Assembly: GCA_003450815.1 (NCBI GenBank)
Contig: DMES01000078.1
Span: forward strand, 175 to 64,174
Source of the DNA: Elusimicrobiota bacterium
GTDB lineage: Bacteria > Elusimicrobiota > Elusimicrobia > Elusimicrobiales > UBA9959
DNA: 64,000 nucleotides
Direction: 5' to 3'
In this document: piece after piece, positions 15,151 through 63,374 of the stretch
Numbering within the stretch: position 1 is the first letter of the stretch
Layout: the number at the start of each line of letters is the position of its first letter
Made by a program: the position numbers and the translations under genes
Notes under the pieces: generated by a model
What the model saw: the letters and a program-made list of their open reading frames with translations, nothing else
Told to the model about the DNA's origin: nothing
Database searches by the model: none

Positions 15151-16617
15151 CTATCCCGCCAGCAATCTTTTAATCATTTCATTTGCAAGTTTGGGGTTGG
15201 CTTTGCCTTTGGACTTCTTCATCATCGCTCCGACGATCGGGCCGAGGGCTTTTTCACTCCCATTTTTAAAATCCTGCGCGGCGCCCTGGTTGGCCTCAAT
15301 GGCCTCTTTGGCCCAGGCCTCTATCTGTGCGGTATCGCTCACCTGCGCTAGGCCAAGCTCGCGCAGCAAAATTTCTGGTTTTTTGCCCGTTTCCCAGGAC
15401 GCGGCGAAAATTGTTTTGGCGGCTGAAGGCCCTGTTGTTCCTGCCGTCACCATACCAGCCAATTCCGCTAAATTAGCCGGCAAGATGGTTTTTGGCGAAA
15501 GATAATCTTCCGGTTGTATTTTTAATTCGTTGGCACGGGCGAGAAATTCACCAGCGATCAGATTCGTCACCGCTTTGGCATTTACCTTCGTGGTTTTGTT
15601 CATACTGGCGTCAAAAACTTCGCTTAAATAGCGATCAGAAGTGAGCACGGCGGCATCATAGTTATTAAGGCCGAAATCTTTCATAAAACGCGCTTTGCGC
15701 GCTCGCGGCAGTTCGCCTATTTTCGCTTTTGCCGCTTCAAGCCGGTCCTCCGTAATTCTGAGCGGCACAAGGTCCGGCTCCGGAAAATAGCGGTAATCGT
15801 GCGCCATTTCTTTTGAACGCATGGAAACGGTTTTCTGTTCCTTTTCATGCCAGAGGCGCGTGTCCTGCGCCACGGTTTCGCCGCTCTCAAGCATTGAGGT
15901 CTGGCGCCCTATTTCGTGGTTTATGGCGTCTTTCACCGCCTTAAAAGAGTTAAGATTTTTAATTTCCACCTTGTGCCCCAGCTCTTGGGTTCCGGCGGCT
16001 TTAAGTGAAATGTTTACATCGCAGCGCAGTTCGCCCTTTTCCATATCGCATTGCGAAATGCCGGCCCATTGCATAAGCCGCTTTAGTTCGGTAAGGTAGG
16101 CGTAAGCCTCGTCGGCTGAATTTATGTCCGGTTCTGAAACTATTTCTATAAGAGGCACCCCGCAGCGGTTGAAGTCTACCAGGGTGTAATCCAGCGCCCG
16201 GCTGCCCAGGGCGTGCAGTGACTTTCCGGCGTCCTCTTCCAGATGCGCGCGGGCCACCCGTATGGTTTTTGAACCGGAAGGCTTTAAATCTATTTCAACG
16301 CTTCCAGCCTCGCATAGCGGCCGGTCAAACTGTGAGATCTGATAGGATTTAGGGAGGTCCGGGTAAAAATAATTTTTACGGGCGAAAACAGAGATTCCGT
16401 TCACGTGGCAGTTAAGGGCAGCTCCGGCTTTCACGCCCAGCTCCACCGCTTTACTGTTTGTGACGGGCAAAGCGCCGGGTTGGCCGGTGCACACGGGGCA
16501 AATTGAGGAATTGGCCGGAGCCATGTAGTCCGCCAGCTGGCATGAACAGAACATTTTCGTGGCGGTGTTAAGCTGGGCGTGCACCTCAAGGCCGATAACA
16601 GTTTCAAATTTGCTCAT
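15151..16617 (-). CDS. gatB: Asp/Glu-tRNA amidotransferase subunit B
   Basis: MSKFETVIGLEVHAQLNT N-terminus, 488 aa, GatB/YqeY C-terminal tail. Confidence 0.95.
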   Translation of the reverse strand: MSKFETVIGLEVHAQLNTATKMFCSCQLADYMAPANSSICPVCTGQPGALPVTNSKAVELGVKAGAALNCHVNGISVFARKNYFYPDLPKSYQISQFDRPLCEAGSVEIDLKPSGSKTIRVARAHLEEDAGKSLHALGSRALDYTLVDFNRCGVPLIEIVSEPDINSADEAYAYLTELKRLMQWAGISQCDMEKGELRCDVNISLKAAGTQELGHKVEIKNLNSFKAVKDAINHEIGRQTSMLESGETVAQDTRLWHEKEQKTVSMRSKEMAHDYRYFPEPDLVPLRITEDRLEAAKAKIGELPRARKARFMKDFGLNNYDAAVLTSDRYLSEVFDASMNKTTKVNAKAVTNLIAGEFLARANELKIQPEDYLSPKTILPANLAELAGMVTAGTTGPSAAKTIFAASWETGKKPEILLRELGLAQVSDTAQIEAWAKEAIEANQGAAQDFKNGSEKALGPIVGAMMKKSKGKANPKLANEMIKRLLAG

Positions 16618-16644
16618 AAGCGGTCCTTAGGGGGTAATACTCAA

Positions 16645-16754
16645 GTAGACAGAATTCAGTAGTCAGAATCCAGAATAGCAGATGTGAAGCCTCCGATAGC
16701 TTTTTGCCTTATGGTTTCGTAATTCTGGCTTCTGACTACTGTCTTCTGAATTCT
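16645..16754. repeat. inverted arms of degenerate NNNNCAG heptads (long imperfect hairpin) between NUDIX gene and gatB
   Basis: The left arm (16659-16675, TAGTCAGAATCCAGAAT) pairs with the right arm (16722-16738, ATTCTGGCTTCTGACTA) at 16 of 17 positions. Flanking heptads extend the stem imperfectly. Confidence 0.75.
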
Positions 16755-16769
16755 AACTTTACCAGTTTC

Positions 16770-17195
16770 CTAAATTTTTGAAAAGTCCTCCACCAGTTCC
16801 AGCAGCCGGAGATCGCTCGGGTAAGTTAGATACGCCTCCGCTTCAGCGAGAGCGCACCATTTCATGTCAAAGACCTCGTCCGGCGTTTTTGGTATGCCGT
16901 CTCCGCCCAAGCGTTTCATCAGGTACCAGCGCACGTCTTTGTTTACCGGGATGCCGTTCCTTACGAACGAGTATTCGGCTTTATACAATTCTCCGGTTAT
17001 CCGGCAGTCGAAGCCGGTTTCTTCCGCCACTTCCCGTATCGCCGCGGCTTCTGCGGTTTCCCCGTCTTCCAGGTGGCCTTTAGGGAAAGTCCAGACTTTA
17101 TCGCCGTTAAGGTTGGCCATCAATATAAGAAGGACCTGTCCGTCTTCAAAAATAACGCCGCCTGCCGAGTGTTCGCGCTTTATTTCAGGCGGCAT
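16770..17195 (-). CDS. NUDIX hydrolase
   Basis: Nudix box GHLEDGETAEAAAIREVAEETG. 141 aa. Overlaps the gatA stop. Confidence 0.85.
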   Translation of the reverse strand: MPPEIKREHSAGGVIFEDGQVLLILMANLNGDKVWTFPKGHLEDGETAEAAAIREVAEETGFDCRITGELYKAEYSFVRNGIPVNKDVRWYLMKRLGGDGIPKTPDEVFDMKWCALAEAEAYLTYPSDLRLLELVEDFSKI

Positions 17196-18597
17196 GTTCC
17201 AACTCCTTGATAACGCCGAACATCAGGCTTTCATTGAACGGTTTTACCAGCAGCTGTGCGCCGATGGGCAGGCCGTTCTGACTTTTTCCGGTCGGAAAGG
17301 AAATGCCGGCAAGCCCCGCCAGGTTGCAGGGAATGGTGAAAATATCCGACAGGTACATCGCCAGCGGGTCGGCAATTTTTTCGCCGAATTTAAAAGCCGT
17401 TGTTGGCGCTGTGGGGGTAAGTATAACATCCGCGGTTTTGAAGGCTTCGTCAAAATCCTGCTTGATGAGCGTGCGGATTCTTTGGGCTTTCAGGTAATAA
17501 GCGTCGTAATAGCCTGAGCTGAGCGAATAAGCGCCCAGCATTATGCGTCGTTTTACTTCCGGGCCGAAATTTTGGCCGCGGGTCTTCCTGTAAACATCGG
17601 CCAGGCTTGAACCTTTGACGCTTGCGCCGTAGCGTATGCCGTCAAAGCGGCCCAGGTTGGAGCTGGCCTCGCTTGAGGAGATAATGTAGTAAGCGGCCAA
17701 AGCATAAACGGAATTAGGGAGCGATACTTCCAGCATTCGGGCGCCGGCGGAGCTCAGCCGGCTTTTTACCTTTTCCATCGCGGCGGCCACTTCGGGTGTG
17801 AGTCCCGTCATATCGCTGAAATACTCTTTCGGCAGGCCCACGCGCAGGCTTCTCATGTTAAACGGCCTTTCCATCATCGGCCGCTCAATGGAAGTTGAGT
17901 CTTTCGGGTCGTGAGCGGCCAACGCTGAAAAAGCCAGCTCAGCGTCTTTGACGGTGGATGCAAAGGGCCCGATCTGGTCCAGGCTTGAGGCAAAGGCTGT
18001 AAGACCGTGGCGTGATACCAGGCCATAAGTGGGTTTTAAGCCATAAACGCCGCAGAAGGCGGCCGGTTGGCGTATGGAGCCGCCGGTGTCGGAACCCAGC
18101 GCGATGGGACAGAAACCAGCCGCCACAGCGGCGGCGGATCCTCCGGAAGAGCCGCCCGGCACATAGGCGGGGTTAACTGGGTTTTTGGTTTTTTGGTAAG
18201 CCGAATTCTCAGTGGAGGAGCCCATTGCAAATTCATCCATGTTTGCCCGGCCTATTATAACCGCGTCTTCATCTATAAGCCGCTGTACGGCTGTGGCGGT
18301 GTAGGGGGAAATATATCCTTCCAGTATTTTTGAGCCGCAGGTCATGCGGTGTCCCGCATAGGCCATATTGTCTTTTATGGCCACAGGCACGCCCGCAAGG
18401 AGACCCATTTTTCGGCCAGATGCGGCTTTGATGTCCACCGCCGCCGCTTGCGCGCGCGCGGAATCCGTGAAAACTTCCAGAAAAGCCCCGATCTCGCCGT
18501 CGCGTTCATCTATGACCTTAAGGCAGGTCTCAAGCGCGGCTGAGGCCGTAAGCTTTTGCCCTTTTACCAGTTCAACAGTTTCGGTGGCGGTAAGCAT
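17185..18597 (-). CDS. gatA: Asp/Glu-tRNA amidotransferase subunit A
   Basis: Amidase signature GGSSGGSAAAVA. The likely start is MLTATETVELV at 18597; the track start at 18642 would run into the repeat element. Confidence 0.93.
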   Translation of the reverse strand: MLTATETVELVKGQKLTASAALETCLKVIDERDGEIGAFLEVFTDSARAQAAAVDIKAASGRKMGLLAGVPVAIKDNMAYAGHRMTCGSKILEGYISPYTATAVQRLIDEDAVIIGRANMDEFAMGSSTENSAYQKTKNPVNPAYVPGGSSGGSAAAVAAGFCPIALGSDTGGSIRQPAAFCGVYGLKPTYGLVSRHGLTAFASSLDQIGPFASTVKDAELAFSALAAHDPKDSTSIERPMMERPFNMRSLRVGLPKEYFSDMTGLTPEVAAAMEKVKSRLSSAGARMLEVSLPNSVYALAAYYIISSSEASSNLGRFDGIRYGASVKGSSLADVYRKTRGQNFGPEVKRRIMLGAYSLSSGYYDAYYLKAQRIRTLIKQDFDEAFKTADVILTPTAPTTAFKFGEKIADPLAMYLSDIFTIPCNLAGLAGISFPTGKSQNGLPIGAQLLVKPFNESLMFGVIKELEHAA

Positions 18598-52465: not shown

Positions 52466-52884
52466 AATACAACAAAATTCTTCCTGGCGAGCGTTTATAC
52501 AAAGACGAGATTTTATTGAAGTCGGCGGGGTATGATGTTGAAATAGTCGGGGCCGAGCTTTTAGGCCGGGATGGCTCCACATTAAACGGGCCGGTATTTA
52601 TTTACGATGTTAGGGAACTAAGGGAAAAGGCAGGAGCCTTTTCCCTACATACGTTGACGGTGTTTTTTATGGTGCCGGGAATTTGAACGGCGGTGCAGGT
52701 GTATCTGGATCTTGCCGGCTATTAAGGAAGAGGCGCGGAAGCTGCGGCTGGAAATCCTTAAAAATCTCATAAAATCATCATGATAAGCAAAAATAGCGCT
52801 CCTGAAAAGCACATAGGGCCTTCCATCAGCATCAGTGCAATTTCGCTATGGATTTAATAGAATTGACTCAGTTCAGGGAAGTTT

Positions 52885-54408
52885 ATGAGACCTATCCGCA
52901 TATTCATAAGCAGTGCGCAAAAGGAATTTGCAACTGAACGGGCCGCGTTGCGCGATTATCTGCGCGGCGATGCCCTTATGCGCCGGTTTTTTGAACCGTT
53001 TTTGTTTGAGGATGTCCCCGCTGCCGATCGCAGGGTGGACAAAGTCTACCTGCATGAAGTGGAACAGTGCGACATCTACCTCGGCTTATTCGGCAACGAG
53101 TACGGGTTTGAGGACGCCGACGGCCTTTCACCAACAGAGCGCGAATTTAATACCGCCTCCGGGCTGCATAAGGCGCGGCTAATCTTTGTAAAAGGGGCGG
53201 AGGATGGAGCCAAACATCCAAAGATGCAGGCACTCATCCTCCGAGCCGGGTCGGAACTCATTCGGCGCCGGTTTGGAACGAGCGCGGAACTGCTCACTGA
53301 CGTTTATTCCGCGCTGGTGCAGGTGCTTGAAGACCGGGAACTGATCCGTACCGGGCCGTTCGATGCTGCTCTTTGTCCCGGGGCTGCGCTGGAGGATCTG
53401 GATGAAGGAAAAATGCGGCGGTTCATTCTTGATGCCCGCCGTGCCAGAGGCCTCCCGCTGAGCGAGGAGGCCTCTCCAAAAGATATTCTGACCCACTTAA
53501 ACCTTCTTGATAATGGTGGGGTGGTGAACGCCGCCGTGCTATTGTTCGCGCGGCAGCCGCAACGGTTTCTGGTCTCCTCGGAAGTGAAGTGCGCACATTT
53601 CCACGGCATTGAGGCAACAAAACCGATACCTTCCTATCAGACATACAAAGGTACGGTATTTGATTTAGTGGACCATGCGGTGGATTTCGTCTTATCGAAG
53701 ATCAATCTTGCCGTTGGCACGAGGGCGAACAGTTCGCAGGCGCCTGTTGCATATGAGATACCCCCGGAAGTTGTTCGCGAAGCTGTCGTTAATGCCGTGG
53801 CGCACCGGGATTACACCAGCAACGGCAGTGTCCAGATTATGCTCTTTTCCGACCGGCTGGAGGTCTGGAATCCGGGCACTCTGCCGCCTTCGCTTACGCT
53901 GAAGAAACTGCGTCACCCGCATGGCTCGGTGCCATGGAATCCCCTGCTGGCTGAACCGCTTTACCTCACGAAATACATAGAACGTATGGGCACCGGCACG
54001 GGGGATATGATCATGCGCTGCCGGAATGCGGGTCTTGCCGAGCCGGAGTTTGGCCTGACCGACGGCTTTGTAGTCACCATCCGCCGCAAGCCGGAGCAGG
54101 CATTTGAGGCGGTTGGGGGAGAGAAGAGTCAATCCAGGGGCAAGTCACAGCCAGAGTCACAGCCAGAGTCACAGCCAGAGTCCTTGGAAATTCGGATTTT
54201 GCGCCAGCTTGCGGCAGCTCCTTTAGGAAAGGCTGAGTTGTCTGCACGCCTCGGCCAAAAGGAAATTTCAGGCCAGTTAAACAAGGTTATTCGCGTTCTC
54301 CTGGGTGATCAAACCATCGAAATGACCACCCCCGACAAGCCCAATAGCCGTCTGCAGCAGTACCGACTCACCGAGACAGGCCGCGCCTTGCTCACAAGGA
54401 AGAACTGA
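52885..54408 (+). CDS. DUF4062-like N-domain fused to a COG2865-type (RecG-like HATPase_c_4) region and C-terminal winged-helix
   Basis: The N-terminus IRIFISSAQKEFATERAALRDYL fits the DUF4062 pattern. The central AVLLFARQPQRF...VVREAVVNAVAHRDYTSNGSVQIMLFSDRLEVWNPGTL fits the COG2865 core. An SQPE x3 linker precedes a wHTH-like tail. Confidence 0.7.
   Translation: MRPIRIFISSAQKEFATERAALRDYLRGDALMRRFFEPFLFEDVPAADRRVDKVYLHEVEQCDIYLGLFGNEYGFEDADGLSPTEREFNTASGLHKARLIFVKGAEDGAKHPKMQALILRAGSELIRRRFGTSAELLTDVYSALVQVLEDRELIRTGPFDAALCPGAALEDLDEGKMRRFILDARRARGLPLSEEASPKDILTHLNLLDNGGVVNAAVLLFARQPQRFLVSSEVKCAHFHGIEATKPIPSYQTYKGTVFDLVDHAVDFVLSKINLAVGTRANSSQAPVAYEIPPEVVREAVVNAVAHRDYTSNGSVQIMLFSDRLEVWNPGTLPPSLTLKKLRHPHGSVPWNPLLAEPLYLTKYIERMGTGTGDMIMRCRNAGLAEPEFGLTDGFVVTIRRKPEQAFEAVGGEKSQSRGKSQPESQPESQPESLEIRILRQLAAAPLGKAELSARLGQKEISGQLNKVIRVLLGDQTIEMTTPDKPNSRLQQYRLTETGRALLTRKN
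54145..54180 (+). repeat. perfect 12-bp x3 tandem repeat (TCACAGCCAGAG) encoding SQPESQPESQPE
   Basis: Read directly. It forms the linker between the HATPase_c_4-like region and the C-terminal wHTH. Confidence 0.95.
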
Positions 54409-54721
54409 ACAATTATCCCGGCGGCCTTGACGCGCCGGCGGCGGAGATAAAAAAGCATATCTCCAATAAGCTGGTCCGGGAAGGCTTTGAAAAATATCGG
54501 ACAAATTCGCCTCTGAAAAGCACATAGGCCCCAAAATGGCGGCGGACTTTGAGGAAATTCCGGTCGGCGGACAGCGCAATATGCTGCTGCGCGGCGCTTA
54601 TAAAAAGTTGATTATTTGTTGACGGTGAAGGGCTTCTAGTGATAAAAATGTATTATAAGTATAAGCCCTTAATATGCTTGTTTAGAATATTTAAGGGGAA
54701 AGGACACAGGCGGAAACTGTT

Positions 54722-54934
54722 ATGAGATACAAAAAATCACTGGATGCGGAGAATGATTTTAAGCAGGAATTTTCAAGTGTGCGGAAACGGCAGTATAATG
54801 AGGTGTGGGAATTTATTGAAAAAGAGGGCAAAGAGAAATTTACTTTGGATGTATGGGAGAGGATGTATAAAAAGTATAAAAACCTGTATATAAAAACCAA
54901 CAAGAGCTTTGTGGATAATATGCATAAAACTTAA
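54722..54934 (+). CDS. hypothetical small Lys/Glu-rich protein
   Basis: 70-aa ORF at the start of the AT-rich segment. Weak RBS. Confidence 0.35.
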   Translation: MRYKKSLDAENDFKQEFSSVRKRQYNEVWEFIEKEGKEKFTLDVWERMYKKYKNLYIKTNKSFVDNMHKT

Positions 54935-54980
54935 AATTAAATACGCGCCGAAGCGAGGATATGGAGTCAAGAGGAGATTT

Positions 54981-55388
54981 ATGGATAAACAAATTGAAAT
55001 TCTGAAATTTCTAAAAAGTCGTAGAATAGTACTCATTGATAAGCTAACTGAGAATAAAGAGGCAATACCAGGCTCAAAAACTGAATTGCTAGGTGAAATA
55101 ATATTTGGCAAAGCGAATCTTGCCGATGTAAGCATTACTGAGATATTTTCTAAATGTGACTTAGATATTAACGGGCCACATGATATAGGATATTTAGAGG
55201 AAAAAGGGTATGCTACCATTGACAAGGCTAAAAATACTATGCATATTACTGGACTAGGTCTTGACCGATTACAGCCTTTCCTCAAAAGAGAACGACATAA
55301 TATTTGGGTGTATGGAGTTTTAGCTACCATCTCGGTAACACTTGGTTCTTTTTTTGCAAATTGGCTTTTTGATTTTTTTAAAAAGTAA
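54981..55388 (+). CDS. hypothetical protein: wHTH-like N-terminus plus C-terminal TM helix
   Basis: The ATG at 54981 is preceded by GAGGAG. MDKQIEILKFLKSRRIVLIDKL resembles a MarR/wHTH start. C-terminal helix IWVYGVLATISVTLGSFFANWLF. Confidence 0.5.
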   Translation: MDKQIEILKFLKSRRIVLIDKLTENKEAIPGSKTELLGEIIFGKANLADVSITEIFSKCDLDINGPHDIGYLEEKGYATIDKAKNTMHITGLGLDRLQPFLKRERHNIWVYGVLATISVTLGSFFANWLFDFFKK

Positions 55389-55434
55389 ATCTATAAGGGG
55401 GGGATTTGGGTGGAGCCAAACTCAACAATAAAAT

Positions 55435-55815
55435 ATGGACAAAACAGATGACGAAGATATACTTTCCGAGAGTTTGTTGAACTTACTTAACGATGGAAAA
55501 ATGTCTGCACACCAACCCATTGTGGGGTTTCGTAGAACCGCAGAACTCCTTTATGGAAAATGGAATACGTCAATAATTATGAGAAAGGAAGACGCTGAAA
55601 AACACAAAAAACCACATGTACATGTCGAATCTTCAGATGGAAATACAAGTTTTGATTTAGACGGAAATAATTTGACTTCTAATACAATAAAAAAAGAAAA
55701 CTACTTCTCTCGATGGATAAAAGAAAAGAAACAGTTTTTATCCGTAATCTGGTTTGAACTGGCCGATGATAATCCTAATAAAGTGGTTATACAAGAGCAG
55801 AAGCGGTTCTTATAA
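55435..55815 (+). CDS. DUF4160-like protein
   Basis: KKPHVHVESSDGNTSFDLDGNNL...RWIKEKKQFLSVIW matches the DUF4160 PHxHV...W pattern. The start is uncertain (alternative ATG at 55501). Confidence 0.5.
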   Translation: MDKTDDEDILSESLLNLLNDGKMSAHQPIVGFRRTAELLYGKWNTSIIMRKEDAEKHKKPHVHVESSDGNTSFDLDGNNLTSNTIKKENYFSRWIKEKKQFLSVIWFELADDNPNKVVIQEQKRFL

Positions 55816-55913
55816 TTGATAATAATTAAACGGTGGTTGTATTGTCATATTGCAAGAATATTAAATGTTTTTTGTGTTATGTTGTTACAATGAGCGGGTA
55901 ATGGGACATATAT

Positions 55914-56654
55914 ATGAAAGAAGGCGATAACAATGTCGAGTTTAGGCCCGTGTGTAAGGATACTCCGGAAGAATTTACTGATTTTTTAGCGAATTTAAAG
56001 GACCCGACGGAGCCGGAAAAGCATAATAGCGCCTGGACAAGGTTGTGGACTCAGATTAAGATATGGGCTAACGGGTGTATTAGAAAAGTCTTTGGGGCCA
56101 CTGAGGAAGATGCTGAGGATTTAACCAGTAAGGTGATGAGTACTGTTTTTGCAAAAATATATGAGTTTGAAATTCAGGACAAAAAGCACTGTGCACTGCA
56201 ATTTTGCGGGTATATTAATAGATTCGTTATAAATATTTGGATGAAGATTAAAGGTAGCAAGTTTACCAAAAGAAAATTGAAAGGGTCGGATAAAGAAAAC
56301 GCAGCGGAGGAAGGTGGGATAAGGAGAGAGGCAGCGGAAGAACAGTATCAACGCGACGTTGAGGTTTTAGATGATAAAGGTGATAAATCGGACCCGGCTG
56401 CTATTTTGTATAGCACAAGGAAGATTCAATCGGGTTTTTACTATTTGGATTTATTCGCTAAGCAGAGCGCCGTAAAAGCTTGGGTCCTAAGGAAGGCGGC
56501 ATTTTTGATAATAACGGATCCGGAATTTACACTTAGCCGGGATGTTAAACGGCGGTTGTCGGTTAGCCGTGAAACGCTGTGGCGCGATTGTAAGGAGTTT
56601 GCTGAATTTGTACGGAACCAACCCGGAAGTAAGGAAGAGGGGCTTTATGACTGA
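55914..56654 (+). CDS. sigma-70 family (ECF-like) sigma factor candidate
   Basis: Region-2-like segment AWTRLWTQIKIWANGCIRKVFGATEEDAEDLTSKVMSTVFAKIYEF...YINRFVINIWM. Region-4-like HTH tail RRLSVSRETLWRDCKEFAEFV. Motif-level recognition only. Confidence 0.55.
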   Translation: MKEGDNNVEFRPVCKDTPEEFTDFLANLKDPTEPEKHNSAWTRLWTQIKIWANGCIRKVFGATEEDAEDLTSKVMSTVFAKIYEFEIQDKKHCALQFCGYINRFVINIWMKIKGSKFTKRKLKGSDKENAAEEGGIRREAAEEQYQRDVEVLDDKGDKSDPAAILYSTRKIQSGFYYLDLFAKQSAVKAWVLRKAAFLIITDPEFTLSRDVKRRLSVSRETLWRDCKEFAEFVRNQPGSKEEGLYD

Positions 56655-57195
56655 GGATAATGAGAAAAAAGAGTTTTATCAACGACTGATTGATATCGTA
56701 GGTGAGCGGGAGGTTGGGATAATTTTACCTTCTCATAAGGTGGGGAAATGCGATGAAGGCCTGATAATCAGCTATCTCTCAGGCGGGATGCCGCCGGCAA
56801 AAATGAAAGTTGCAGAGGAAAAGATATTCTCCTGCAGCAAATGTACCCTGCTTGCCATAGAATTAGCAAGGGCGACGGAAGGCATAAAAGATGATTGCCC
56901 CCAGGGAACAAAACTGGATCATGAGGGGTTCGTGCGCTGGCGTGAGCGTTTTGAGAAAGAGCATTTATATACAGTAAATAAAAAATATGGAAAGACAGAC
57001 CTAAAGTTTACCGCAAATGGGTGGGATGCGAGGATTGATAACGCTAAAGAAGACTTTCGGGTTAGGGTCGGTAAAAAAACATACGCGCCTACTAATGACG
57101 GGATTATTACCTACCCGGATACTCCGGATGCCGTGCTTGAATCTGCAGATGGGCCGACCGTTAATATACATGAATTCTCTGGGGGGCGTAAATGA
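56647..57195 (+). CDS. hypothetical cytoplasmic Cys-containing protein, anti-sigma-like by position
   Basis: Overlaps the sigma-like ORF by 8 nt and the STAND gene by 4 nt. Cys cluster C-x27-C-x2-C (GKCDEG...FSCSKC) sits where zf-HC2 anti-sigma proteins carry theirs, but the canonical His is absent. No TM helix. Confidence 0.4.
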   Translation: MTEDNEKKEFYQRLIDIVGEREVGIILPSHKVGKCDEGLIISYLSGGMPPAKMKVAEEKIFSCSKCTLLAIELARATEGIKDDCPQGTKLDHEGFVRWRERFEKEHLYTVNKKYGKTDLKFTANGWDARIDNAKEDFRVRVGKKTYAPTNDGIITYPDTPDAVLESADGPTVNIHEFSGGRK

Positions 57196-59549
57196 TTCAA
57201 CGTATTGAACAGGAAATGGAAAAACTTTTGCTGGAGAAGCACGGCCTTGATTATCTTCTTAATAATGCCGCTGATGATATTGTTGCCAAGATAAAAAATA
57301 TGGAGAGTGGGGTGTTTTTAGTGGAGGGCTTGCCTGGCATAGGGAAGAGTGCCAGCATGAAGTATATTGCAAATGCCGTTGGCGCGCATAACCCAGAAAG
57401 AGTTGTTCATTTTTACTTCAGCTTGAATAATCCTGTTTTAGATAATGCGGATAATTATTATGAATACACCTGTGATAAAATCAGGATAATAATGGGAGTT
57501 GCAGATCCTGCCGTTCCACAAATTCAAACTTCAAGAAGGGAGAGGAAAGATTATAACGATTTCCAGCAATCCGTATTGGATTTGTCCTCCGCAATAGGCA
57601 AAGATGACGAGAAAAAAGTTTATTTTTTCATTGATGGTATAGAGGAGATGCGTGATTATAAAGAATTCCTTAGCTATATTCTTCCGGCTGAAGGTGTTAT
57701 CTATGTAATTTTTGCGCAACCAGGCGTTTGTAACGGAAGTTTGCCGGTAAATTTCCTTGAACACGGAAAAATAAAAAATCGGGTTGAAGTAAAATATCTC
57801 AATAAAACACACGCCAGGGAATTTTTCTGGAAAGTGTTTGGGAAAGCCCCAGATGCTGAATTTGATGTTTTTGAGTCTAAGGTGCGAGCGCATTTTGATA
57901 GTTATATTGAAACCGAGGAAAACCGTTGCCCATTATTGCTTAAGATTTTAGCCGAGGACGCAAAGGAGGATGGATTTAATCTAGATAGGGCTTGGGCTAT
58001 TGGGTTAGAAGGATATTTGGATGGGCGAGTTAAACTTTTTTCTGAGAATGCAAAAAAGCTTTTGGTTTTAGTGGCGCTAGCCAAAGGCCCGCTGCAGAGC
58101 GAAGACCTTGTTGAAATGACGGGTTTAAGCCGGGCGGTTTGCGATGGGGCACTTAACGAGGCGAAGAAATTTTTAATAATTAACGGCCAAGGTATTGTTA
58201 TATCCCATAATGTGTGGGCAAAATTAATTTCTGATAGATGGGGTGACAAGTCAAGTTATGAAGTGTATTTAACTTGGTGCGCCAATTGGAGCAACCCTTC
58301 CCTGCGCCAGGAAACAGCGGTATATATAGCTCGGCACTATGTGTTTCATGTCCTGGACTTTTCCGACAGATGGTCTGATGGCTCTGGAAGAGCAGAGGAA
58401 TTATTGCTTGAACTGTATAAGGACTCTGCTGATGAATATGTGGGCTTTCAGCTAAACACTTTATTCCCATTAGGTGAATCTTTGACTGATATTAGTCGCA
58501 TAGCTAAAAAAGCTTTTGTGAGAGTTTCCTCATCGCAAAAATTCAAACCGGAACTTGTGGTTACTTTGGTAGCGGTAATATGTCAGATAGAGGGATCAAA
58601 ACGTGCAGATTTTACAAGGGAGTATTTAAGCGCTGCGAACCGGAAGGGTATTGACAGTGAAATCGATAAAGGCATAATTCGTGAGGTAGCAACTTCTGTT
58701 TTAGCCATGATTGGATGCGATGAGGCCGGGCTCGTATGGGGATTGCTACCGATTGAGACGGGGGTGGATAAGAAATGGGATGATTCTCAGGCTCTATGTT
58801 ATCTGGTCTCAGAAAAGATCTTTAGAGAGATGCCTTCTGAAGAAAATAAGTTGCTAATATTTGATACTTTCTTGCAAAACACGAGGAGATGTTTAGAAGG
58901 TGACGCGGTGCGTTTAAAATCAGCTACGTGGCCTGAGAATGTTAAACTTGTTTACCAAGGTCTGCGTGTCTGGTTGAATATCTATGCAGCTTTTCAGCCG
59001 TGGTTGAAATTACCACATGATTCTAGAAATCCTAAGGTAAAAGTCTTAGCAAAGCATGGGGCTCAGTATGAACAAGGTATTCTGTTATGGGTAAATGCAC
59101 TTTTTAGATGTGCGAAACAAATATCTAAAGAAAAAAGCGGGATTTCTGGGGTGGAGCGTGAAATGCTTAATAGAATTCAGCGTGCAGGAATTCTTGCCCA
59201 ACTTAAAATAAAGCCAGTCATATGGAATATGGGGCCTAAAGGCGCAACCTGCAGAGCAGATGAGATTGTGTCTTTATCATGTATTATAATTTGTGAACAA
59301 GATGTTGTTGCAAGGCGTGCTGCTGCTGAGGGGTTGATTGAAATTGGTGATTCTACGGCTTGTGAGGCTTTGATTTATGGACTAAAGAATGATACAGATG
59401 TCCAAGTTCGCGCCCGATCCGCCACAGCTTTAGGTAAAATTGGTGATCCCTGTGCGCAAGAGCCGCTGATTGAAGCTATAAATGATGAATTTGAAGAGGT
59501 TCGAGTGGCTGTTAAAACGGCCCTTGAAAAACTCAGGCCTGCTAAATAG
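57192..59549 (+). CDS. STAND (NACHT-like) P-loop NTPase with C-terminal HEAT (PBS-lyase type) repeats, no N-terminal effector domain
   Basis: Walker A GLPGIGKSA at about aa 47. Walker B VYFFIDGIEEM. Long helical middle region. C-terminal repeats AAEGLIEIGDSTACEALIYGLKNDTDVQVRARSATALGKIGDPCAQEPLIEAINDEFEEVRVAV. Confidence 0.75.
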   Translation: MIQRIEQEMEKLLLEKHGLDYLLNNAADDIVAKIKNMESGVFLVEGLPGIGKSASMKYIANAVGAHNPERVVHFYFSLNNPVLDNADNYYEYTCDKIRIIMGVADPAVPQIQTSRRERKDYNDFQQSVLDLSSAIGKDDEKKVYFFIDGIEEMRDYKEFLSYILPAEGVIYVIFAQPGVCNGSLPVNFLEHGKIKNRVEVKYLNKTHAREFFWKVFGKAPDAEFDVFESKVRAHFDSYIETEENRCPLLLKILAEDAKEDGFNLDRAWAIGLEGYLDGRVKLFSENAKKLLVLVALAKGPLQSEDLVEMTGLSRAVCDGALNEAKKFLIINGQGIVISHNVWAKLISDRWGDKSSYEVYLTWCANWSNPSLRQETAVYIARHYVFHVLDFSDRWSDGSGRAEELLLELYKDSADEYVGFQLNTLFPLGESLTDISRIAKKAFVRVSSSQKFKPELVVTLVAVICQIEGSKRADFTREYLSAANRKGIDSEIDKGIIREVATSVLAMIGCDEAGLVWGLLPIETGVDKKWDDSQALCYLVSEKIFREMPSEENKLLIFDTFLQNTRRCLEGDAVRLKSATWPENVKLVYQGLRVWLNIYAAFQPWLKLPHDSRNPKVKVLAKHGAQYEQGILLWVNALFRCAKQISKEKSGISGVEREMLNRIQRAGILAQLKIKPVIWNMGPKGATCRADEIVSLSCIIICEQDVVARRAAAEGLIEIGDSTACEALIYGLKNDTDVQVRARSATALGKIGDPCAQEPLIEAINDEFEEVRVAVKTALEKLRPAK

Positions 59550-59642
59550 ACGGTTGCTGTAGATTATAGTCGCTTTTTAGACTATGATTCCCCAACATCC
59601 CCTCCTAAACGAACCATAAAAAACTAATAGCTGGAGTAACTT

Positions 59643-59685
59643 CCCCAGGCAGCAGTAAAATGCTGCCTGGGGCTGCTTTGTTTTG
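59643..59685 (+). terminator. rho-independent terminator after the STAND operon
   Basis: CCCCAGGCAGCA-gtaaaa-TGCTGCCTGGGG followed by CTGCTTTGTTTT. Confidence 0.85.
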
Positions 59686-59805
59686 GCATTAAGTTTCCGA
59701 AGAACCCATATAGACAAATAATTGGACAAAACACCCTGCAACAAAATAGCGTTAACCGGGAATATACAGGTAGAAGGGTAACGCTGAGAGGGTCTGGGGG
59801 ATGGT

Positions 59806-59977
59806 ACAAACTGGAAGCCGGCGACATATAGTGATAGGCAATTAAAACTTACGGAGGAATATATGAACACAAAACACCTTACAGTAGACACAAGCAATGC
59901 GGCCTGGGAGATTTTCGGGTTTGACCGGGAAATGCGGGGAAGTGAGCATCGCGTTACGGATAGCCAGCGCTCAAAAA
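59806..59977 (+). repeat. copy 1 of a ~170-bp tandem duplication (leader + first ~38 codons of the NYN gene)
   Basis: Aligns with 60073-60245 at a 267-268 nt offset, with by-eye identity of roughly 80%. The first 26 nt (ACAAACTGGAAGCCGGCGACATATAG) are identical. Confidence 0.85.
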
Positions 59978-60585
59978 CCACAGTCTGCCTTCAACGCGAG
60001 GCTATTGAACGCTGCGGAAGCTGCGGCGCGCCTGCCATACAGGGGGCGGGGTTCTGTTATTCGTGTCTTGCAACAAACTGGAAGCCGGCGACATATAGCG
60101 AGAGGCAGCAAAAACTTACTGAGGAATATATGAACATAAAATACCTTATAGTGGATGGAAGCAATGCGGCCAGGGAAATTTTTGGGTTTGGCCGGGATAT
60201 CTGGGGGAATGAGCGCCGCGTTCTGGATAACCAGCACTCAAAAAGCCTGCTTTCCGTGCTTGCCGCGTTTCCCAAGAGGCTCGGTATACCTGAAATTAAG
60301 GTGTATTTTGACGGAACCGTGCGGCCGCATGAAATATGCCCGCGAAACCTGCCCATGAGCGTACGCCTGGAATTCGGTGCCGGAACTGCCGCGGATGAAC
60401 TTATAGTACGCGAGGCCGGCGCTCTGGTCAATAGCGCCGGAGGGATAGCCGTTGTAACTAATGATCGCGATCTGGGAAACCGGGTTAAAGGGTTGGGGGT
60501 ATTCAAGGTTCTTCCGGTGTGGTCACTGAAAGCAATGGCCCAGGATGCCGGTCTGAATACGGATTTGTATTTCCACTCGGCCTAA
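59863..60585 (+). CDS. NYN/PIN-like (YacP/Rae1-like) ribonuclease domain protein with duplicated N-terminal segment
   Basis: The second copy MNIKYLIVDGSNAAREIF...ADELIVREAG...IAVVTNDRDLGNRV fits the NYN YacP pattern. An internal ATG at 60130 has its own RBS and would give a 151-aa canonical protein. The upstream 89 aa are a degenerate copy plus a Cys-rich linker (CGSCGAP...CYSC). Confidence 0.65.
   Translation: MNTKHLTVDTSNAAWEIFGFDREMRGSEHRVTDSQRSKTTVCLQREAIERCGSCGAPAIQGAGFCYSCLATNWKPATYSERQQKLTEEYMNIKYLIVDGSNAAREIFGFGRDIWGNERRVLDNQHSKSLLSVLAAFPKRLGIPEIKVYFDGTVRPHEICPRNLPMSVRLEFGAGTAADELIVREAGALVNSAGGIAVVTNDRDLGNRVKGLGVFKVLPVWSLKAMAQDAGLNTDLYFHSA
60073..60245 (+). repeat. copy 2 of the tandem duplication
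   Basis: See 59806-59977. Confidence 0.85.
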
Positions 60586-60652
60586 TGTGCGGGTTCTGTG
60601 CCAACGGAAGCGGAGTAAAACGACCTTCAGTCAAAACTTAGTAAGAGGACTT

Positions 60653-62284
60653 ATGATAAAAATAAAAAACAATAATGATTATCTCGCAAACCTTACCCGC
60701 ATTCTTTGCAACCCTGATTTCCACCGGGCTCTTCCCGATAAGTCTCCGGCGCCATTGCTTAAGGCGCCGACAAGGCTTAGGTCTGTTGCTTCGGCTGTTG
60801 ACTCTAAAGCCGTCTGCGCCAAAACTCTTGCGGAATTGCGCGAGCTTTTTGCCGCCGGTCAAAAGGGAGTTAAGCGCGGGCTTAAAATACCTTTTACCAA
60901 AATTTGCGTGCAGAAACGGTTTGATGAAATAGAGTCCGCGGCCTTCGCGCTCTTTGCGGTGGCTGAAATTTCCGGTCGGGATCAGTTTGAAATCTTCCGC
61001 GGGGCGGAAAACATCTTTAAATCCCTGGCTGGCCTGTTCGGCATGGAAAAGGTAAGGCTGGCCCCTTATTTTCTGTCTTCCGGCAAACTCAGGAAATCCG
61101 GCGTGTTTTCGTGTGGACATTACATGCAGGACGACGCCTTCCGTCTGCCGTCTAACTTAAGGGAGAAAATTATTGAAAAACTGCTTACCGGAGATAAGAA
61201 ATCCCTCAAGAAGAAAAATAAGGTTGTGAAAATACTCCGGCCCGGCAGCATTTCAGAGAGGCTCGGTTTAAACGTAATAGCGCAGGAGGCCGCCAAAAGA
61301 CAGCTCTCAACCGTGGCTTTTCAGCATTTGCAGCGCGCTAAAACACCGGTTAAATCAGGGTTGGCCGCGCCGCGCCTGAATACGCTGCTTATCGGGCCTA
61401 CCGGCTGTGGAAAAACTTATATAACCAAATGCCTGGCGGAAATACTGGGTGTGCCCGTTGCCTTTTGCGACGCCACACAGTACACTGAAACCGGCTATGC
61501 GGGCGCCTGTGTGGAAGATATGCTGGTGCAGCTTCAAACGTCCGCCGGAGACAACCCCAAAGCCGCGGAATACGGGATAATTTTTATAGATGAAATAGAC
61601 AAGATACGCGCGGAAAGTGTGGGTCAGTCACATAACAGTAACCGTGATGTAAGCGGTCTTAGCGTACAGCAGGACCTGCTTAAAATACTTGAAGGCGACA
61701 AGCTTAACTATGAGAAGTATCGTACAAGGTGTCTCAGCGAGTATAGCTTTAACGTAAAGAATGTGTTGTTTATCGCCGCGGGCGCATTCCAGGGTTTGGT
61801 TGATATCGTAAACGATCGGATTAAAACCAAAAGACAGATAGGATTTAATGACCAGGCGACCTTAACAAACGGTCAACCTGAGCAGGTTAATCTTCTGCAA
61901 CAGGTACGTCCGCAGGACATTATAAAGTACGGTTTTATGCCGGAGCTTATAGGGCGTTTCCCTAATGTAATTGCGCTTGACCGGCTTACCAGGGAAGATT
62001 TTCTGGGTATACTGGATAATCCCCGCACAAGCCTTGTGGAGTATTACCGCGATTTTTTCAATAAACATGGTGTGGAGCTGGAAATCCCGCCTGAGTTTTA
62101 TGGGGAAATTTCCGCCAATGCCATTGACCGCGACTTGGGCGCCAGGGGCCTTAACGCTGCCGTGGAAGGGTTTTTCTCAGGCCTGGTTTTTGACCTTCTG
62201 AAGTTCAAGAAAGCCGGTGAAAGACAAAAAGTCAACATAATGGACTATACTCGCGGCGGGCATCTTAAGGAACTGTTCGGGTAA
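60653..62284 (+). CDS. ClpX-like AAA+ ATPase with a novel ~240-aa N-terminal domain (no ClpX zinc-binding domain)
   Basis: Walker A GPTGCGKTY. Pore-loop-like ETGYAGACVED (ClpX has GYVGEDVE). Walker B IIFIDEIDKI. LLKILEG, FIAAGAF, an IGF tripeptide (RQIGFND), FMPELIGRFP and GARGL. I preferred the ATG at 60653 (AAGAGGA RBS) to the GTG at 60587. Confidence 0.8.
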   Translation: MIKIKNNNDYLANLTRILCNPDFHRALPDKSPAPLLKAPTRLRSVASAVDSKAVCAKTLAELRELFAAGQKGVKRGLKIPFTKICVQKRFDEIESAAFALFAVAEISGRDQFEIFRGAENIFKSLAGLFGMEKVRLAPYFLSSGKLRKSGVFSCGHYMQDDAFRLPSNLREKIIEKLLTGDKKSLKKKNKVVKILRPGSISERLGLNVIAQEAAKRQLSTVAFQHLQRAKTPVKSGLAAPRLNTLLIGPTGCGKTYITKCLAEILGVPVAFCDATQYTETGYAGACVEDMLVQLQTSAGDNPKAAEYGIIFIDEIDKIRAESVGQSHNSNRDVSGLSVQQDLLKILEGDKLNYEKYRTRCLSEYSFNVKNVLFIAAGAFQGLVDIVNDRIKTKRQIGFNDQATLTNGQPEQVNLLQQVRPQDIIKYGFMPELIGRFPNVIALDRLTREDFLGILDNPRTSLVEYYRDFFNKHGVELEIPPEFYGEISANAIDRDLGARGLNAAVEGFFSGLVFDLLKFKKAGERQKVNIMDYTRGGHLKELFG

Positions 62285-62379
62285 GAGCATCGGGGGCTTA
62301 TGAATGGCAGGAAAGGCAGGTAACATTTCGGCAGCTGTAGTCTTATAGTAGAGGCTGGTTAAAACATAGGAGGTTATAT

Positions 62380-62601
62380 ATGGCTGGACATAGAGCTTGG
62401 AACAGGTTTAATAACAGCGGGGTTGCCTGGAATCACTGCGGGTATGGGTTTAGGAAAGATGATAGTGAGGATAGGGAGGCATCTAAATGGGATAGAGAGC
62501 TTGCCGCCCGGACTTTGCTTAAGATAGAGGCTAGAAAGGCGGCGGTGAAATTTACCAGGGATGTTCCCATAAACACAATAGGGATATATTGGGCCAGGTA
62601 G
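62380..62601 (+). CDS. hypothetical small protein
   Basis: 73 aa. Strong RBS TAGGAGGT. Preceded by a copy of the island leader element. Confidence 0.5.
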   Translation: MAGHRAWNRFNNSGVAWNHCGYGFRKDDSEDREASKWDRELAARTLLKIEARKAAVKFTRDVPINTIGIYWAR

Positions 62602-62732
62602 TTGTAAGAACGGGAAAATTAGTTATTCTACGCTTGACCGTTCTGAGTATGGCCAAAGTCCCTGCAACAAAATGGAAGCTGTCGGGCATATGTAGGTGAG
62701 AGGCGGTAAGGTTGTGAAAATAAGGAGGCAAT

Positions 62733-62993
62733 ATGGATATTGAAGATATACTGGGCATGCCTAAACATAAGAGGTATATAAAGAATACTCGCACATCGCA
62801 TGATAGGAATGTCCGCATAGAGATCAACGGTGATGTTACAAAGGCTGAGCAGAACTTCCTTAACGGGATGTCATTTTTTATAGCAGGCACACTGAGCAAA
62901 GACGATGAAAAGTATACCCGCTATGTGTCTGAAGTAATGTCGAAGTTGCTCAAGCACTTTGTTGACAGGATGAAAAAGCCGGAGGGCAAGTAA
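62733..62993 (+). CDS. hypothetical small protein
   Basis: 86 aa. RBS AAGGAGG. Preceded by a copy of the island leader element. Confidence 0.5.
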   Translation: MDIEDILGMPKHKRYIKNTRTSHDRNVRIEINGDVTKAEQNFLNGMSFFIAGTLSKDDEKYTRYVSEVMSKLLKHFVDRMKKPEGK

Positions 62994-62996
62994 GAT

Positions 62997-63374
62997 ATGA
63001 ATGACAATATTTTTGAAGATTATTACAAGGATGCTTGCTCACCGGAAAGGAACATGGAGCCGCCCAGGGGTGAGGATAGCGTAATAACAGAGGATGCAAA
63101 GCTTATCAAGGATTCCATCAATGACTTTGTGGGCAAGATGAATAAGCTTGTAGGCACTGTGTTTGATAAAGAGAAGGCTAAGGGAACACGGGACGATTTG
63201 GTGGTAACAGTTGTGGCGGGCGGTCTGGCATTCGCCATGGCTAATGTCTACTACCTTCTCACTCGTGACATTGGAGCCAGGATGAGCAAGGAAGAATTCC
63301 AGCGGACCTTTTTTAGGATGTGCGAGAGCGCTTTTAAGAATATGGAAAAGCGTAAAGACAGCCATAATACTTAA
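62997..63374 (+). CDS. hypothetical protein with one central TM-like segment
   Basis: 125 aa. Starts 3 nt after the previous stop. Hydrophobic stretch VVTVVAGGLAFAMANVYYLL. Confidence 0.45.
   Translation: MNDNIFEDYYKDACSPERNMEPPRGEDSVITEDAKLIKDSINDFVGKMNKLVGTVFDKEKAKGTRDDLVVTVVAGGLAFAMANVYYLLTRDIGARMSKEEFQRTFFRMCESAFKNMEKRKDSHNT

Follow-up and report, generated by a model that had tools for sequence, protein, structure and literature searches.

Bacterial NLR-like proteins of the signal transduction ATPases with numerous domains (STAND) class are known to act via fused effectors, and a STAND gene that codes for no such domain raises the question of what its output might be. We address this question for a three-gene operon in a 64,000-nt stretch of DNA (hereafter the window) from an Elusimicrobiota bacterium (assembly GCA_003450815.1, contig DMES01000078.1). 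In this operon genes for a sigma-like protein (gene A) and a candidate anti-sigma factor (gene B) precede the gene for an effector-less STAND NTPase (gene C). In our judgment there is an even chance that this triad, together with a promoter-like motif that accompanies it, forms a self-contained, horizontally mobile transcriptional switch built of sigma, anti-sigma and STAND components.

The triad is conserved as a translationally coupled unit

The original prediction, made from the nucleotide sequence of the window, had described three overlapping open reading frames (ORFs), and these are present with the overlaps that it gave (Table 1). The A/B junction (ATGACTGA) is an 8-nt overlap and the B/C junction (ATGA) a 4-nt overlap, and a G-rich Shine-Dalgarno-like stretch lies ahead of the start codon at each. 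The longest possible ORF for gene B starts at 56542 and codes for 217 aa; since the homologues are 180-185 aa long and all overlap the upstream gene as in the window, we place the start at the ATG at 56647, which yields 182 aa. Sigma-70-like promoters are predicted at 55788-55845 and could provide basal expression of the operon.

No locus with a relative of A, B or C lacks the other two, and the gene order is constant, with 4-8-nt overlaps or short gaps between the genes (loci L001-L006, L007, L008/L019, L009-L013/L020, L014-L017, L018 and L021), and the triad is thus conserved as a unit across genomes. These loci represent about six lineages, whose proteins are 33-54% (A), 43-55% (B) and 38-56% (C) identical to those of the window. 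Their sources are metagenomes of groundwater or sediment and a single Elusimicrobiales metagenome-assembled genome, which is the sole match among 185,579 species-representative genomes; the host of the window is itself a member of the Elusimicrobiota. The triad is very rare, and all of its known carriers are uncultured genomes of the Elusimicrobiota type.

The operon is located in the most AT-rich portion of the window. Measurement of GC content confirms the AT-rich island that had been pointed out there, with a value of 0.402 over 54600-59700 against 0.520 upstream and 0.481 downstream and a minimum of 0.346 at 55-56 kb. A low GC content is shared by the related loci: in all four loci examined (window 55914-59549; L007 1387-5028; L008 8762-11539; L009 7801-10437) the triad is at 0.42-0.48 and its surroundings at 0.46-0.52. 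In the window, the downstream genes headed by the motif are nearer to the host in GC content than the triad is. The strong terminator predicted at the end of the operon is likewise found, as a 12-bp stem followed by a T-rich tail, and a homologous hairpin of the form CCCCTGACAGC...GCTGTCAGGGG-TTTT follows the STAND gene in L007, L008, L009 and L014.

A two-block promoter-like motif accompanies the triad

Several genes downstream of the triad had been noted to share a repeated leader. This cis-element can now be defined as a promoter-like two-block motif conserved across the lineages, GYAACAAAA-N12-GGGCATATATA, with the longer consensus ccTG[C/T]AACAAAA-N12-GGGCATATATA..aGAAGG. It spans 28 nt, is found on the gene strand only and heads each downstream transcription unit in all lineages, with its first copy placed after the conserved terminator hairpin of the STAND gene. 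The motif ends 30-41 nt ahead of the start codon, which has a GGAGG of its own. A position weight matrix (PWM) built from 14 sites was used at a threshold of 18 bits to scan both strands of the 64-kb window and of seven related loci (~150 kb), and it returned no further site of at least 18 bits on either strand in any of these sequences. Strict matches number three in the window, against 0.06 in window shuffles. One degenerate copy, ahead of the small gene p73, scores below the PWM threshold.

What kind of element this is can be narrowed down by elimination. A riboswitch or other structured RNA was considered and rejected, as the motif leaders have no match in Rfam at E<=0.1 and fold with energies equal to those of shuffles (z -0.8 to +0.6); the motif therefore appears to act at the DNA level. 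With a terminator on its upstream side and no more than ~35 nt left before the start codon, the motif would itself have to be the promoter. A general host promoter was also rejected, because no other site occurs in the remaining ~60 kb of the window. The two-block geometry fits recognition of -35 and -10 elements by a two-domain sigma factor, and no predicted DNA-binding protein other than the product of gene A accompanies the motif in every case.

All six lineages have a further copy of the motif at gene A, which overlaps the start codon or directly adjoins it. The ATG of gene A follows block 2 by 0-3 nt in the window, in L001 and in L018. In L007, L008 and L009 the sole in-frame ATG is inside the motif (taATGGGGCATAT), with AAGGAG in the spacer ahead of it; a later in-frame start that would clear the motif was considered and rejected, as none exists. 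This arrangement speaks against a straightforward switch in two respects: a transcript beginning just after block 2 cannot encode A in L007, L008 and L009, given that the ATG is inside the motif, and simple positive autoregulation of A misfits a motif that overlaps the start codon. The copy at gene A allows three readings, namely that it yields a leaderless mRNA, that it yields a transcript for B and C only (negative feedback), or that it is an operator. At 55901-55930 the window also contains a relic start (ATGGGACATATATAT), which is out of frame and opens a 9-codon ORF; the relic at 55901 is the counterpart of the MGHIY N-terminus with which gene A is annotated in L007, L008 and L009, and it seems to be retained as part of the motif and not for coding.

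Gene A is probably a divergent sigma factor

The AlphaFold2 model of gene A consists of two all-helical domains (residues 18-113 and 161-234) with a disordered linker between them. When this model was compared with the PDB using Foldseek, the top 50 matches were all sigma-70-family proteins aligned over ~200 columns (best E 0.011, probability 0.99), including M. tuberculosis SigH, SigE-ChrR, SigW-RsiW, AlgU-MucA and primary sigmas. In BFVD, an independent library of viral structures, the named matches are nearly all phage sigma factors (best E 0.007). Profile comparisons with hhalign used a six-lineage alignment of gene A and a profile of nine diverse annotated sigma factors of the extracytoplasmic function (ECF) type. 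They aligned the two families with a probability of 77.7% (P 1.9e-5) over 134 co-linear columns, residues 64-113 of A mapping to regions 2.1-2.4 and residues ~188-234 to region 4 in the same order. The gene B family, as a control, reached 0.06% against the same nine-ECF profile, and the gene A family gave no signal with E. coli RpoE alone (0.6%). Gene A thus displays the sigma2-linker-sigma4 fold and co-linearity by which ECF sigmas can be recognized, with moderate statistics.

Several observations count against this assignment. The original prediction had read ECF-like region 2 and region 4 patterns in gene A and proposed a search with sigma hidden Markov models (HMMs), and that test fails outright: neither Sigma70_r2 nor Sigma70_r4 is matched by the whole protein at E<=1 or by the separate domains of six members at E<=10. 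No HMM or profile match was obtained for gene A in Pfam, NCBIfam, PADLOC, PHROGs or PDB sequences, and an exhaustive HMMER search of 1.84 billion representatives, with a two-sequence profile as query, reached only three clusters, all of them from the same family. The structural model has a modest basis (mean pLDDT 67, with 80-89 in the N-terminal domain, from an input alignment of four sequences), the Foldseek statistics are modest as well (E 0.007-0.2, TM-scores 0.2-0.39), and an hhalign probability of 78% is suggestive, short of decisive. Low TM-scores are to be expected, as the two domains are flexibly linked. Scanned by HMM, the C-terminal domain matches generic helix-turn-helix (HTH) families and the N-terminal domain matches none. 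The claim of a sigma-like protein thus stands on the two-domain fold and the co-linear sigma2/sigma4 profile alignment, with the HMM libraries remaining silent. We consider it quite probable that gene A encodes a member of the sigma-70 family, highly divergent and ECF-like in its architecture, despite the failed HMM membership test, in which case a sigma-family protein would be able to escape all current HMM libraries.

Gene C is a STAND NTPase and gene B a candidate anti-sigma factor

The earlier description of gene C as an effector-less STAND protein with Walker motifs and HEAT repeats is well supported. Pfam gives matches to NPHP3_N (37.7 bits, above the cutoff of 24.8, 3.1e-9), HEAT_2 (46.6 bits, 4.2e-12) and HEAT_PBS (37.7 bits, 1.6e-9). 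The Walker A (GLPGIGKS, residues 46-53) and Walker B (FFIDGIEEM, residues 145-153) motifs contain the residues G46-x-P-G-x-G-K52 and D148-G-x-x-E152, which are invariant in six homologues. As only ~40 residues precede the P-loop, the protein has no effector domain. Residues 1-390 are conserved across the homologues and the C-terminus is variable: the protein of L009 (465 aa) has no repeats and that of L008 (512 aa) a single HEAT pair, and long arrays are found in proteins of 738-800 aa. The relatives of gene C among PDB sequences are HEAT/alphaRep proteins only. Its PADLOC matches are weak and partial (HEAT-ARM_XIII, 2.3e-5; STAND_TPR, 1.4e-3), with no significant match to the Avs or bNACHT models. 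Genes A and B match no PADLOC model at all, in agreement with the earlier remark that the triad was not recognized as a described system. By its sequence, gene C is a NACHT-like STAND NTPase that ends in HEAT repeats and lacks an effector domain.

Gene B has three cysteines (C35, C63 and C66) that are invariant in the family alignment. In its AlphaFold2 model (mean pLDDT 72) the N-terminal part forms helices at residues 37-44, 50-61, 64-80 and 92-105 (pLDDT 64-77), followed by a well-modelled β-sandwich at 107-165 (pLDDT about 90). C35 lies just ahead of helix 1, C63 in the loop between helices 2 and 3, and C66 where helix 3 begins. This placement matches the ligand layout described for the anti-sigma domain of DdvA, whose CHCC zinc centre includes a histidine (PMC11506125). 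When the N-terminal domain was scanned alone, zf-HC2 was the sole Pfam family reached (three of the seven members, E 0.027-0.13), and the alignment is in register, with the invariant CxxC (C63, C66) at profile positions 31 and 34. An upstream histidine (H30) is present in most members, not all. A hydropathy scan detects no transmembrane segment (maximum Kyte-Doolittle (KD) value 0.81, or 0.81-0.97 with homologues included), from which the protein is predicted to be soluble, and no TPR or CHAT domain appears in the Pfam scan. The placement of gene B directly downstream of A, with the 8-nt overlap, is kept across loci.

An anti-sigma role for gene B also has evidence to contend with. At position C63-4, where zinc-binding anti-sigma (ZAS) domains have their canonical histidine, the residue is K, G or E, so that the H-x3-C-x2-C pattern is absent; the zf-HC2 scores (12.8-15.0 bits) are below the gathering score of 22.2; and Foldseek of the model against the PDB returned nothing below E 0.04, only generic β-sandwiches and no anti-sigma factor. 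Profile and sequence searches with gene B against NCBIfam, PHROGs and PDB sequences gave nothing useful either. No similarity was found between RseA and the gene B family, and an attempt to derive a ZAS reference profile from plasmid ECF neighbours found no zf-HC2 protein among six downstream genes. Of what had been claimed for gene B, the solubility, the cysteine cluster and the loss of the histidine are all real, while the resemblance to zf-HC2 stays below threshold. A ZAS-like anti-sigma factor without the canonical histidine is a plausible but unproven identity for gene B, and its extra β domain could be a contact surface for C.

Putative motif-controlled genes and genomic neighbourhood

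Three conserved small genes are found under the motif. Homologues of p73 (41-48% identical) are present in L007, L008, L009 and L014, each with the motif upstream, and in these four loci a p73-type gene of 72-73 aa is the first after the STAND terminator. The N-terminus of the p73 proteins is invariant and contains many His, Trp and Asn residues (MAGH.AW.RFNN..V.WNH.G), and their net charge is basic (+5 to +10). Homologues of p86 (42-55% identical) occur in L008, L009 and L014, with the motif upstream in L009 and L014. The same three loci encode homologues of p125, which have an invariant GGLAF..A...YL core and a maximum KD value of 1.73. Neither p73 nor p86 has a match in the family or PHROG scans.

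Table 1. Positions of the triad, the associated motif copies and neighbouring genes in the window
Feature	Position	Strand	Length	Description
Gene A (ORF1)	55914..56654	+	246 aa	probable divergent sigma-70-family (ECF-like sigma2-linker-sigma4) protein
Gene B (ORF2)	56647..57195	+	182 aa	predicted soluble; N-terminal Cys3 helical domain and C-terminal β-sandwich; ZAS-like anti-sigma candidate
Gene C (ORF3)	57192..59549	+	785 aa	effector-less STAND NTPase (NPHP3_N/NACHT-like), variable C-terminal HEAT-repeat region
Intrinsic terminator	59643..59672	+		closes A-B-C; 12-bp stem, 9 GC pairs, T-rich tail
Two-block motif GTTACAA...GGGACATAT	55884..55911	+		gene A 5' end, 2 nt before ATG; PWM 46.4 bits
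Two-block motif GCAACAAAAT-N12-GGGAATAT	59738..59765	+		ahead of duplicated NYN 5' fragment; PWM 50.7 bits, strict match
Two-block motif, 27-nt variant	60070..60096	+		ahead of NYN gene; strict match; ends 33 nt before ATG 60130
Degenerate motif GTAACA-N18-TATAGT	62320..62349	+		ahead of p73; from sigma-70 scan and by-eye alignment; ends 30 nt before ATG
Two-block motif	62664..62691	+		ahead of p86; PWM 52.9 bits; ends 41 nt before ATG 62733
p73	62380..62601	+		conserved small basic protein
p86	62733..62993	+		conserved small protein
p125	62997..63374	+		one hydrophobic segment; co-transcribed with p86
Duplicated NYN 5' copy	59863..60129	+		probably non-functional; fused in frame to the real gene in a 240-aa ORF
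NYN (YacP-like) predicted RNase	60130..60585	+		cargo; Pfam NYN_YacP 8.5e-4, below threshold
ClpX-like AAA+ ATPase	60587..62284	+		cargo; NCBIfam ClpX 3.6e-89 (below equivalog cutoff); Pfam AAA_2 7.8e-24
DUF4160 gene	55435..55815	+	126 aa	Pfam DUF4160 1.1e-6; frequent companion upstream of triad

In addition to these genes, the motif heads a cargo that differs between lineages: a NYN RNase and a ClpX-like ATPase in the window, a NYN protein in L014 and an operon with DUF4384, LPP20 and caspase genes in L009. In L007 and L014 a NYN homologue is likewise located on the downstream side of the triad, and that of L014 is 152 aa long. In the window a direct repeat, D1 (59806-59977 and 60073-60244; 172 nt, 84% identical), duplicates the motif and the leader together with ~38 codons from the beginning of the NYN gene. 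In the light of this duplication the 240-aa ORF at 59863-60585 joins a degenerate 5' copy to the real gene, which starts at 60130 and codes for 151 aa; the degenerate copy reads VDTSN against VDGSN, and part of the 240-aa ORF is translated promoter motif. In the ClpX-like ATPase an N-terminal extension of ~190 aa replaces the usual N-terminal region, and the protein matches phrog_4339 (2.8e-67); its gene is absent from the other triad loci. ClpX-type unfoldases are known to degrade anti-sigma fragments.

The DUF4160 gene has a homologue (60% identical) directly upstream of the triad in L007 and L014-L016; as it is absent from L001, L008 and L009, it appears to be accessory. Between lineages the DUF4160 proteins (window 55435-55815; L007 965-1336; L014 4661-5032) are 60% identical, against 35% for A, 46% for B and 47% for C. 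The DUF4160 protein has a weak NCBIfam match to the DhiT toxin, and a DUF2442-type partner is not evident beside it. Elsewhere the triad keeps varied company. L014 has AbiEi/AbiEii genes nearby. The neighbours in L008 are two methyltransferases, a BfiI-like enzyme, a UDG, an SLFN-type helicase, NERD and DUF1016 genes, together with KilA-N, ORF6N and Fic/RhuM genes. L009 has a DUF4011 helicase-nuclease of 1838 aa and serine recombinases. The L009 contig, a 17.9-kb JGI sequence, has inverted genes for a 424-aa serine recombinase at both ends (2-1276 and 16588-17862) and could be a small mobile or invertible element, or an assembly artefact.

In the window the triad lies near prfB on a chromosome-like contig. 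A 24-nt direct repeat (CGC..CTGAAAAGCACATAGG.CC; copies at 52797-52820 and 54508-54531, 88% identical) flanks a gene at 52885-54408 that encodes DUF4062, HATPase_c_4 and Fic-like_C domains and has partial PADLOC matches to pAgo-associated proteins; this repeat pair next to prfB resembles the trace that insertion of a cassette would leave. Two small AT-rich ORFs at the left edge of the island (54722-55388), of 70 aa and of 159 aa or shorter, the latter with a hydrophobic C-terminal tail, have no family match and no homologue in the related loci.

A proposed sigma/anti-sigma/STAND switch and its alternatives

The observations on the motif and the three proteins can be joined in a single model. 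In the resting state gene A, as an ECF-type sigma, would be held by the N-terminal Cys3 three-helix domain of gene B, the β-sandwich of B would offer a docking or regulatory surface, and the variable C-terminal HEAT region of gene C would be the sensor. Binding of a ligand would bring C into an NTP-bound oligomeric state that captures or inactivates B. The released A would then direct RNA polymerase to the GYAACAAAA-N12-GGGCATATATA promoters, which would drive p73, p86, the membrane-like p125 and the lineage-specific cargo. We infer in this scheme that A acts as a sigma on the motif, that B binds A and that C controls B, and likewise the direction of the signal, its trigger and its output. The role that we find most likely for the module, as part of a defence or mobile island, is an inducible response to stress or against invaders (abortive-infection-type). 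The cargo (RNase, AAA+ unfoldase, caspase), p125 and the surrounding island point to a response that is inducible, possibly suicidal, and directed at invaders. More tentatively, and with somewhat less than an even chance, this would be an NLR-like STAND sensor with a private sigma as its sole output, a form of 'transcriptional innate immunity' with exchangeable effector cassettes (NYN RNase/ClpX-like, caspase operon), in which ligand-activated STAND oligomers would strip B from A, a mode of activating ECF-type sigmas not described before. The proposal has to be set against four considerations: the sampling amounts to about six lineages, all uncultured; gene coupling alone ties C to B and A; the defence role of the triad is read from the neighbourhood alone; and the proteins of the putative regulon have no function known from families and no match to a PADLOC defence model.

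The low GC content and changing surroundings of the module would also suit the regulatory switch of a mobile element, such as an integrative island, a satellite or a degraded prophage, in which a private sigma times the genes of the element for its own maintenance or transfer, not for host defence. The module does occur in unrelated genomic contexts, its GC content is under that of its flanks in four of the four loci examined, serine recombinase genes bound the L009 contig, and KilA-N, ORF6N and Fic/RhuM genes are near the L008 triad; many phage sigma factors are among the structural neighbours of gene A, and the ClpX-like cargo has its phrog_4339 match. What makes this unlikely in our view is that 2.9 million IMG/VR contigs contain no relative of B, p73, p86 or p125, that comparison with PHROGs gave nothing meaningful for A, B, C or the small proteins, that no structural, replication, conjugation or integrase gene is conserved beside the triad across loci, and that the window copy adjoins prfB on a chromosome-like contig. 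A prophage late-gene module in particular was rejected, since neither IMG/VR nor PHROGs holds a relative of B, p73, p86 or p125. A different division of labour within the triad seems a little less probable still: A and B would be a sigma/anti-sigma pair in which B itself reads the signal, through thiol or zinc oxidation at the Cys3 site, with C acting in parallel or downstream as a scaffold, chaperone or effector-like NTPase. The three invariant cysteines in a ZAS-like layout without the histidine are compatible with this, and targeting of ZAS zinc ligands by reactive oxygen species has been discussed as an activation route for DdvA (PMC11506125). The STAND proteins of L009 (465 aa) and L008 (512 aa), with little or no repeat region, also weaken the case for an obligatory HEAT sensor. 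Such a redox switch would, however, leave no role for the well-folded extra β-sandwich of B, and it sits poorly with a C that no lineage lacks, that is everywhere translationally coupled to B and that retains invariant NTPase motifs, the more so as STAND proteins are an established class of signal-transducing switches.

The failure of the sigma HMMs invites the further alternative that A is an ordinary two-domain HTH regulator, that the motif is its operator or activator site and that B and C are modulators. HMMs indeed find a generic HTH in the C-terminal domain of A only and nothing in the N-terminal one, the Foldseek statistics are individually weak, and at gene A the motif extends over the ribosome-binding site and the start codon, as operators often do. 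Yet the 30-41 nt that follow the motif leave no room for separate -35 and -10 elements, a terminator lies upstream, and the conserved blocks span 28 nt, the geometry of a -35/-10 pair. Moreover, structural matches over both domains are essentially only to sigma factors in two libraries, and the profile alignment spans region 2 and region 4 in order. We therefore think this the least probable of the alternatives, and prefer the model of a STAND-controlled sigma switch.

Comparison with known systems

Known modes of control over ECF sigma factors are proteolysis, partner switching, phosphorylation and built-in extensions. Pairs of ECF (group 4) sigma and class I or ZAS anti-sigma factors such as RpoE-RseA, SigW-RsiW and SigE-ChrR share with the triad the sigma2-linker-sigma4 organization and a co-translated gene directly downstream, which in the triad codes for the anti-sigma candidate; their dedicated two-block promoter would have its counterpart in the motif. 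Their small helical domain with a cysteine at the N-terminus of α1 and a CxxC at the α2-α3 turn resembles the one modelled for gene B. Unlike in these pairs, gene A is invisible to Sigma70_r2 and Sigma70_r4 and has an N-terminal extension of ~60 aa and a linker of ~50 aa. Gene B is soluble, lacks the histidine and has a β-sandwich; a third, obligatory STAND gene is present; and the promoter copy at gene A overlaps its start codon. Avs and bNACHT systems resemble gene C in their P-loop STAND core, helical region, variable C-terminal repeats and defence-island-like neighbourhood, but gene C has no fused effector, and its proposed output would be a separate sigma instead of a nuclease, protease or TIR domain. 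Among transcriptional regulators, MalT and AfsR are STAND proteins with a fused DNA-binding domain that activate host sigma holoenzyme. As proposed for the triad, STAND activation leads in them to transcription of a specific regulon, whereas promoter specificity in the triad would lie in the separate sigma-like gene A, with an anti-sigma-like adaptor in between.

A full-text literature search found no description of a sigma/anti-sigma/STAND triad, and the ECF re-classification mentions no NTPase-linked group. A close counterpart is DdvS/DdvA of Myxococcus xanthus, in which an ECF sigma and a transmembrane ZAS anti-sigma govern a CBASS-CRISPR defence island, DdvA having a periplasmic TPR-CHAT sensor and releasing the sigma by regulated proteolysis (PMC11506125). 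The two systems would have in common a sigma/anti-sigma pair, a regulon of neighbouring defence-type operons with multiple promoters and an anti-sigma with a zinc-type three-helix domain. They differ in that the gene B candidate is cytoplasmic, that the presumed sensor is a separate STAND NTPase and that the regulon of the triad contains no recognized defence system. An ECF-type output has also been proposed on computational grounds for some TRADD-N and EACC2-caspase conflict systems, which have ECF-like HTH domains or adjoining ECF genes and a predicted transcriptional output (Kaur et al. 2021, PMC8195603), and a caspase operon is the cargo of L009. The triad, in contrast, lacks TRADD-N, EACC2 and DUF1822. 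The sigmas of those systems are recognizable ECFs, and neither an anti-sigma/STAND coupling nor a private promoter motif is described for them (PMC8195603).

What is new in the present case is the motif that accompanies the triad and stands ahead of three conserved small genes and a variable cargo. If the proposed model is true, a STAND NTPase would be a new input mechanism for the control of ECF sigmas, beside those already known. A transcriptional STAND output detached from the sensor would be a new architecture, one that would explain some of the 'effector-less' STAND genes. As the module combines a compact, specific promoter with a size of only ~3.7 kb, it is directly testable by reporters, and it might serve as an orthogonal genetic switch. 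In comparison with MalT and AfsR on the one hand and DdvS/DdvA on the other, the triad would thus join a STAND NTPase to a sigma/anti-sigma pair through separate, translationally coupled genes.

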